The translations under genes were made by a program, and so were the position numbers. From an uncultured bacterium (GTDB lineage Bacteria > Verrucomicrobiota > Kiritimatiellia > RFP12 > CAIWXQ01), in the NCBI GenBank assembly GCA_903916675.1, contig CAIWXQ010000001.1:217-64216 (forward strand): a stretch of 64,000 bases of DNA, in the 5' to 3' direction. The notes under the pieces were generated by a model. It was not told where the DNA came from. It made no database searches and saw nothing but the letters and a program-made list of their open reading frames with translations. Positions 25,935-26,013 of this stretch are shown here, one piece after another (the first letter of the stretch is position 1; the number at the start of each line of letters is the position of its first letter).

Positions 25935-26013
25935 TCGGCGTCGGGGTCGGAATCGGTATCGGGGTCGATTGTTCCCTCGACCTCGACCCCGATACCGACT
26001 CCGACCCCGATAC
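25935..26013. repeat. Hexamer-arm palindrome, full copy (NNTCGG family)
   Basis: CGGCGTCGGGGTCGGAATCGGTATCGGGGTCGA - ttgttccctcgacc - TCGACCCCGATACCGACTCCGACCCCGATACG. The inner 30 nt of the arms are complementary with one mismatch. The arms are tandem NNTCGG hexamers. Confidence 0.9.

Follow-up and report, generated by a model that had tools for sequence, protein, structure and literature searches.

The NNTCGG palindromes described here are, with a probability of roughly 0.7, gene-less miniatures of a dispersed family whose arms are common to one lineage of four-helix-bundle gene cassettes (PF05635/TIGR02436, the S23p/Avd-like protein family named after 23S rRNA intervening sequences, IVS). 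The window analyzed is the whole stretch of 64,000 nt, C1:217-64216 of a 2,477,839-bp assembly in 48 contigs (63.8% G+C, 87% complete).

Palindromes of the window

A three-unit pattern, TCGGNNTCGGNNTCGG, has 25 matches in the window when up to one mismatch is allowed; 1.07 would be expected, and none of 100 shuffles equals this count. The sequence-only reading had assigned such repeats to four loci. Two of these are real full palindromes (25935-26010 and 31673-31792) with stable folds, and a third is a true solo arm; the fourth one, in the hyf-like spacer, turned out to be too degenerate for a confident assignment, with hexamer runs of just 22 nt (60488-60509) and 16 nt (60517-60532). The coordinates are collected in Table 1.

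Table 1. Features of the window, with positions counted from its first nucleotide.
Feature	Position	Strand	Description
Composite element around copy 1	25886..26034	-	Approximate extent; diverged subfamily-A unit in minus orientation
Copy 1, left arm	25935..25968	+	TCGGCGTCGGGGTCGGAATCGGTATCGGGGTCGA; six TCGR cores, five NR spacers
Copy 1, right arm	25977..26010	+	TCGACCTCGACCCCGATACCGACTCCGACCCCGA; loop 25969-25976; hairpin -62/-64.5 kcal/mol, z -8/-10
Copy 2, left arm	31673..31706	+	One mismatch in 34 nt to the full-cassette left arm C3:15949-15982
Copy 2, loop	31707..31758	+	52 nt, TTT at the end before the right arm
Copy 2, right arm	31759..31792	+	TCGACCCCGATACCGATAGCGACTCCGACCCCGA; hairpin -67.8 kcal/mol, z -8
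Solo right-type arm	52058..52091	+	TCGACACCGATCGCGATGCCGACCCCGACGCCGA; TTTT just before; partner arm absent
Cassette of related architecture	55217..56034	+	Inverted GTCGAC-type arrays (55217-55251, 55988-56031) around a TIGR02436 four-helix-bundle ORF (ATG 55270, stop 56034)
Doubtful degenerate copy	60488..60532	+	TCGAAATCGAAATCGGTATCGA / TCGACCCCGACACCGA; within the loop of a palindrome of AGGCTGN heptamers, hyf-like spacer

The arms of copy 1 are 34 nt long each and 82% complementary, with an 8-nt loop between them. In an alternative register the arms are 28 nt long, 96% complementary and separated by 14 nt, which is the loop length reported for this copy before. The loop of copy 2 has the length that had been estimated from the sequence (about 52 nt), and its arms are near-identical to those of copy 1, in agreement with the arm sequence proposed to be common to both. 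Loops related to that of copy 2 occur elsewhere in the genome at C18:91042 and C40:25847. Folded as RNA, both full copies reach -62 to -68 kcal/mol (z of -6.6 to -10 relative to shuffles); the folds of the solo arm and of the hyf-spacer locus (z of -1.15) are no better than those of shuffles. A search of the entire window against Rfam at the gathering threshold gave no matches.

A T-run, noticed earlier as the motif TTTTCG(A/G), adjoins the arms at all four window loci. In the full cassettes described below, an A-rich/Shine-Dalgarno leader (TCGAAAAGGAG) comes after the left arm, and the T-run is its reverse complement; TTTTCGA corresponds in the same way to the leader junction itself.

The element around copy 1 occupies the whole spacer from the stop codon of the CoA-transferase gene (25894-25896, within the outer module) to the start of adh (26052). 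It can be aligned with subfamily-A copies (see below) over positions 25889-26018 at 73-79% identity; the match of the far end, CTATTGCGTTTTGAATCAATCG, is by eye only. The outer module of this subfamily-A-like element includes the TGA stop of the CoA-transferase gene (25886-25896, AAGTGACC), the last codons of which may have been reshaped by the insertion.

The loop of the AGGCTGN-heptamer palindrome (60460-60580) contains a small ORF, MQKHSFFEIEIGIDH..., the start of which resembles N-termini of other four-helix-bundle proteins of this genome (M..RFEDIEAW). The stretch TCGAAATCGAAATCGG in this region may be a remnant of an ORF rather than an NNTCGG arm.

Composition of the family

A strict scan of the 2.48-Mb assembly (at least four units with NR spacers) revealed 150 arms at 104 loci. 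The dispersed family of inverted hexamer arrays which had been proposed from the window is thereby extended to the genome, and the classification into full and solo copies that had been suggested gives 43 paired, 39 left-only and 22 right-only loci. The unit of the family is TCG(G/A/C)-N-R (TCGV-N-R) and the arms are 34 nt long, with the left-arm consensus TCGGGGTCGGGGTCGCTATCGGTATCGGGGTCGA. The second base is a purine in 97.2% of 671 spacers; the cores are TCGG (550), TCGA (168) and TCGC (111). Two loop lengths predominate, 8 nt with 17 copies and 46 nt with 11, the remainder falling between 7 and 65 nt.

The family is thus present genome-wide, and the database search matched it to no annotated repeat family or terminator class. 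It was correctly said not to be a CRISPR array: regularly spaced direct repeats are missing, and the 6-nt units follow one another without gaps in arms that are inverted. The statement that it is not a recognized REP/BIME/ERIC element also holds, with no Rfam match and no RAYT. Membership in the REP/REPIN-RAYT group was rejected as well, both for the missing RAYT and for the build of the arms, which are 34-nt TCGV-N-R arrays with no GTAG-type head.

The NNTCGG arms are missed by TRF (their spacers are variable), and this program served only for listing other unit families. In the whole genome it found 586 non-overlapping tandem arrays with a period of 6-12, as well as 20 further inverted pairs of arrays built of other units (GTCATTG, AGGATTC, GAATTAC, GGATGCG, CAGAGGT and others). 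The gaps in these pairs are mostly 10-103 nt and a few enclose 400-765 nt. In contrast to the NNTCGG family, each of these inverted families has few copies.

Several contigs end in or next to a palindrome (C8:138100-138133, C17:13-46, C15:359, C33:173 and C23:81, as well as metagenome contigs L208 and L211). Such positions of the arms fit assembly breaks at repeats, i.e. the family fragments assemblies. The practical consequence is that these hairpins break assemblies and generate spurious ORFs and Asp-rich tails in annotations.

Gene cassette with the same arms

A full cassette is located at C3:15949-16404, where 34-nt NNTCGG arms bracket an ORF of 140 aa (MAFGHEKLDVYR...GFDPDTDTDADPDKKD). 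The ORF matches PF05635 (68.5 bits) and TIGR02436 (E 1.5e-17), and among solved structures it is closest to Xcc0516 of Xanthomonas campestris (PDB 2GSC, E 2.9e-9), described in the literature as a pentamer of four-helix bundles. Each of the nine PF05635 hits of the genome, including the one in the window at 55217-56034, lies between inverted arrays of 6-8-nt units, with a different unit for each cassette; the C3 cassette is the one with NNTCGG arms. In seven relatives (94 PF05635 hits) about 22 of 30 fetched loci have arms of 28-94 nt with a period of 6, 7 or 8, which enclose 340-530 nt, and two of these cassettes have CGGGAAT heptamer arms, the unit of Xanthomonas. Three relatives (G004, G007 and G022), each from a different family of the order, have NNTCGG arms together with the cognate protein, which is 91-93% identical there to the product of the C3 ORF.

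In each of the four full cassettes, the A-rich/Shine-Dalgarno leader and then ATG come after the left arm, and the ORF reads the right arm in frame as DPDTDTD..., i.e. as an (Asp-X)n tail. The sequence-only reading had regarded the DPDTD translation as low complexity explaining spurious ORFs; it is indeed a source of such ORFs, but not merely that, since the right arm of the full cassettes is truly translated in this frame. With the cognate protein as query, a search of 5.8 billion proteins gave 7,859 homologues at E<=1e-10. An (Asp-X) run of at least three at about residue 130 is present in 115 of the 120 best of them (71-94% identity), which means that the arm travels with the protein lineage. 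The database homologues are mostly located on contigs of about 1 kb.

A full cassette with TCGGTA/TCGGAA arms is also carried by the cultured Desulfonatronum parangueonense, the source of one of these homologues, between the T2SS E and F genes (L203 9890-10570). The 3' end of this cassette is tandemly duplicated, resulting in two right arms about 120 nt apart. Arms identical to the consensus at 31-34 of 34 positions were found in records labelled Desulfosudis oleivorans, Desulfatiglandaceae, Lentisphaerales and Kiritimatiellia; the degenerate-pattern scan of genome contigs was swamped by Asp/Ser/Gly-rich coding repeats (Actinomycetota, Burkholderiales), and true family arms were present in four records only.

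Loss of the gene

Relatives hold copies in which both arms and the N- and C-terminal codons are retained and the middle of the ORF is lost. One copy (G022:C3) retains codons 1-39 and the C-terminus, another (G022:C5) codons 1-75, and a third (G032:C13) nine N-terminal codons and residues 69-125; G025 has three copies with one common junction after codon 34. The descent of the gene-less copies of the present genome by deletion is drawn from the arms, the leader junction and this series in the relatives. The loops of 30-65 nt in this genome have no significant similarity to the cassette ends, class C alone giving p of about 0.02-0.035.

As additional modules outside the arms, the three deletion copies of G025 (L181-L183) have about 100 nt upstream in common, and G022 (L184/L186) and G007 (L158) share the right-flank module GACCGCCAACCACCGGCGGGAGGCGAC. 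The latter is read through in many database homologues as ...DRQPLAPGDA or ...RRQPEGPGDSQ.

The window copies have the arms of IVS cassettes, in which tandem units of 6-8 nt make up inverted arrays that pair into a long stem. Strict membership in this class was rejected for them, as their loops of 8 nt and 52 nt hold no ORF, and they are filed as derivatives.

The abundance of arms is associated with the cognate gene. Among 41 relatives, the gene is present in nine of the 12 genomes with at least seven arms versus none of the 29 others (Fisher p 6e-7, Spearman 0.69, uncorrected for phylogeny; five genera have both and three have arms only). Three genomes (G011, G015 and G016) have 11-31 arms and yet lack the cognate gene.

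Copying of gene-less units

Many copies can be grouped by a common loop and common flanks, though they are situated at otherwise unrelated loci. Subfamily A comprises 14-15 copies of about 170 nt, in which the loop is ATATACAA and the ends are CTATTGAAC...GATCAATAG. It consists, in this order, of CTATTGAACTTTCGTAATAAAAGTGACAATCGCA, the left arm, the loop, the right arm and a 65-nt module terminating in the end sequence named above. Its outer 30 nt are mutually inverted repeats, and the number of units is 5 or 6, a variation as slippage would produce. Subfamily B is about 225 nt long and has at least eight copies, which extend from TACAGACAG to GGCTCAATAG and possess a single common 46-nt loop. 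The flanks of the A and B copies are unrelated. The outer modules of A have matches within their own genome only and in none of four congeners; this suggests a species-specific burst of subfamily A.

The recurrence of identical loops and outer ends at loci that are otherwise unrelated shows that copying went on after the gene had been lost and that gene-less units multiplied as discrete elements. It could be argued instead that each of the approximately 100 loci goes back to a full-cassette insertion of its own, of which it is a decay remnant or an excision footprint, with no copying after gene loss. The separate deletion derivatives of varied size in the relatives and the many solo arms of this genome would fit such an origin. 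But the same 8-nt loop, 46-nt loop and outer modules recur at 8-15 unrelated loci, and G025 has one deletion junction in three copies. Recurrent loops and modules of this kind do not come from independent deletions, which makes this explanation very improbable.

The sharp boundaries and TIR-like termini of A and B resemble those of ordinary MITEs. In that case a DDE transposase would recognize the outer inverted ends (CTATTGA...TCAATAG with TA tips), and the hexamer palindrome would be a passenger module. TA is indeed present at both the start and the end of A and B, as in IS630/Tc1-type elements, and is inseparable there from the TIR; no clear target-site duplication and no direct repeat beyond this possible TA is seen. 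Against this explanation, which we regard as rather unlikely, the outer modules are never found without the hexamer arms, and terminal inverted repeats are limited to A and B: other subfamilies, the full cassettes and the copies in other phyla have the arms but not these ends. Moreover, the assembly (87% complete) contains no longer element with these ends, a search for a partner IS with subfamily-A ends giving no convincing end pair 0.5-3.5 kb apart.

Two B copies at C18:210490-210984 are 270 nt apart and have an identical immediate left flank, which looks like a local duplication rather than two insertions. Next to them are CCCGCATCC-type heptamer arrays that belong to a truncated four-helix-bundle cassette (C18:209338).

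Genomic context

About 93% of the loci are intergenic according to a crude, GC3-based gene call (80% coding). Of the 104 loci, 90 are situated in classifiable intergenic spacers, 7 at contig ends and 7 in crude ORF calls; the ORFs overlapped by the last group are probably spurious. Spacers between co-directional genes harbor 64 loci (71%), divergent ones 17 (19%) and convergent ones 9, as compared to 61%, 21% and 18%, respectively, of the background spacers of at least 60 nt. The elements are thus strongly intergenic, and gene 3' ends are not favored. Relative to transcription, orientation is unbiased (4:10 in subfamily A, 6:2 in B).

These figures bear on the question of whether the palindromes serve the host and are selected locus by locus, be it as nucleoid-protein arrays, RNase III or mRNA-stability hairpins, terminators, or G-quadruplex/i-motif sites. 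Very stable hairpins, the strict conservation of TCGV-N-R with its purine at the second spacer base, the fixation of the elements in all sampled populations and the predominance of co-directional surroundings are in line with such a role. We nevertheless consider it quite improbable, since the context resembles the background, orientation is unbiased and the distribution among relatives is patchy. A G-quadruplex is disfavored by the arm itself, which has three GGGG runs only, with a 14-nt gap between. An intrinsic terminator was rejected: the T-run precedes the right-type arm, on neither strand is a stem followed by a U-run, and 19% of the loci are located between divergent genes.

Pairing of the arms is not kept above the family average either. 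Complementarity of the spacers is 0.58 within copies versus 0.63 ± 0.02 for random arms of the family, i.e. no copy-specific compensatory pairing is found, and hence pairing is not visibly under copy-specific selection. The conserved feature is the unit pattern and not the pairing within individual copies.

Three loci were compared with metagenome contigs and were identical in all readable contigs that carry the neighbouring gene. One length difference among such contigs proved to be a scaffold gap of Ns and not a polymorphism. No empty sites were found in congeners, in which synteny is broken and identity is just 74-77%. The region upstream of rlmN has no element in G002 and G003; its neighbours differ there, and these loci were rejected as clean empty sites.

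Possible mode of propagation

Returning to the descent from the four-helix-bundle cassette, the following course of events can be proposed. The starting point would be the full cassette with the left hexamer array, Shine-Dalgarno sequence and ATG, an ORF of about 125 aa for the four-helix bundle and the right array read as (Asp-X)n. Internal deletions, seen as such in the relatives, would have dropped the ORF and left both arms in the loci of this genome too. The gene-less units, as their identical loops and outer ends show, were then copied as discrete elements of about 170-230 nt to intergenic sites that are unrelated to one another. They lie either way round in spacers of any gene orientation, as tolerated selfish DNA does.

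The leading candidate for the copying activity is the cognate four-helix-bundle protein, which may act in trans on the repeat units. This idea is attractive because one intact copy stands beside about 100 gene-less ones and because of the association across genomes. To our knowledge, no catalytic activity of the four-helix-bundle protein has been described. No RAYT (Y1 transposase, PF01797) matches were obtained in the genome, while the control search was positive in 6 of 14 reference genomes, and the assembly encodes no reverse transcriptase (PF00078). The mover could also be a transposase, as yet unseen, that recognizes the outer ends of A and B, which the full cassette lacks.

For the host, the likely consequence is a long double-stranded stem in any transcript crossing a copy. 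Transcribed copies would form hairpins of 28-34 bp and, by analogy with rRNA IVS stems, be substrates of RNase III. Such cleavage is expected as the genome encodes RNase III and as rRNA IVS stems of the same build are cut.

A wider generalization may be put forward tentatively: PF05635 proteins and their cognate arrays might constitute a transposase-free self-propagating system similar to RAYT-REPIN, with the NNTCGG elements as its high-copy non-autonomous population across phyla and the 23S rRNA IVS as those copies whose insertion site happened to be rRNA. The number of units per arm, five to six, might then correspond to the protomers of the pentameric ring. Although possible, this is clearly less probable than the descent of the palindromes from the cassette.

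Comparison with known systems

The NNTCGG family joins, within one genome, three puzzles that are decades old: rRNA IVS with an S23p ORF, the vast four-helix-bundle family, and the dispersed heptamer-type arrays of Xanthomonas, Geobacter and cyanobacteria. Inverted tandem-unit arrays and IVS cassettes were known before; new is a hexamer family of high copy number which is tied to a cognate gene. Many copies of one arm, a deletion series, gene-less multiplication and the gene association were missing from the earlier cases and are supplied here, and near-identical arms in different phyla are likewise new. A literature search with the arm sequence gave chance matches only, and the Coxiella IVS paper was the only one found to link four-helix-bundle genes to such repeats.

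In that paper the helix-45 IVS of Coxiella burnetii is described, with a 28-bp stem, tandem GACAGAT heptamers before ATG and a decaying S23p ORF, the stem being cut by RNase III (PMC4990558). The full NNTCGG cassettes are similar to such ORF-bearing 23S rRNA IVS (Coxiella, Leptospira; PMC4990558) in having a PF05635 ORF within a stem of terminal inverted repeats built of tandem short units; ORF decay, internal deletions and a proposed mobile origin (PMC4990558) are matched as well. In contrast to the IVS, the NNTCGG elements are located between protein genes and are not insertions into 23S rRNA helices. Furthermore, their unit is a hexamer, which allows the arm to be translated in frame into an Asp-X tail, an ORF is missing from the window copies, and there are about 100 copies per genome.

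Dispersed GGGAATC repeats forming 70-75 convergent pairs were reported for Xanthomonas (PMC4692102), and classes 1-3 of 'global regulator binding sites', for which binding of nucleoid proteins was proposed, for Geobacter metallireducens (PMC2700814). Like the NNTCGG arrays, those of Xanthomonas (PMC4692102) and Geobacter (PMC2700814) occur as numerous, mostly intergenic pairs whose members lie on opposite strands at variable distances, and their function is unexplained. They differ in the sequence and period of the unit (7-8 nt), and it is the NNTCGG arms that are tied to a cognate gene: neither paper names an associated gene family, and S23 or four-helix proteins are absent from the text of PMC4692102.

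With REPIN-RAYT the family has in common many short palindromic extragenic repeats next to one or a few gene copies flanked by them, the number of repeats following the presence of the gene. It differs in the absence of a Y1 (IS200/IS605-like) transposase and in having 34-nt tandem arrays, as opposed to REPs of about 20-35 nt with a GTAG head. MITEs are resembled in the series of deletions from gene-bearing to short gene-less forms and in subfamilies with defined ends and inverted termini; unlike MITEs, the parent element lacks a transposase gene, and neither a clear target-site duplication nor an empty site is seen. The accessory protein Avd of diversity-generating retroelements (DGR) belongs to the same family as the cognate protein (PMC10053308). 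The assembly has no reverse transcriptase, so the present system is not a DGR, and the acidic Asp-X tail is specific to the cognate lineage, being a difference from both Xcc0516 and Avd. Desulfonatronum parangueonense, as a cultured carrier, is suitable for work on binding, RNase III processing and mobility.

A cassette of related architecture but with GTCGAC-type arrays is present in the window itself right after the alaS stop codon (Table 1). Its ORF of 254 aa contains the four-helix-bundle domain and a weak match to the TIGR04258 suffix domain, and the C-terminus, CPKC...FWGC..YPEC, has by eye the look of a topoisomerase-type zinc ribbon.
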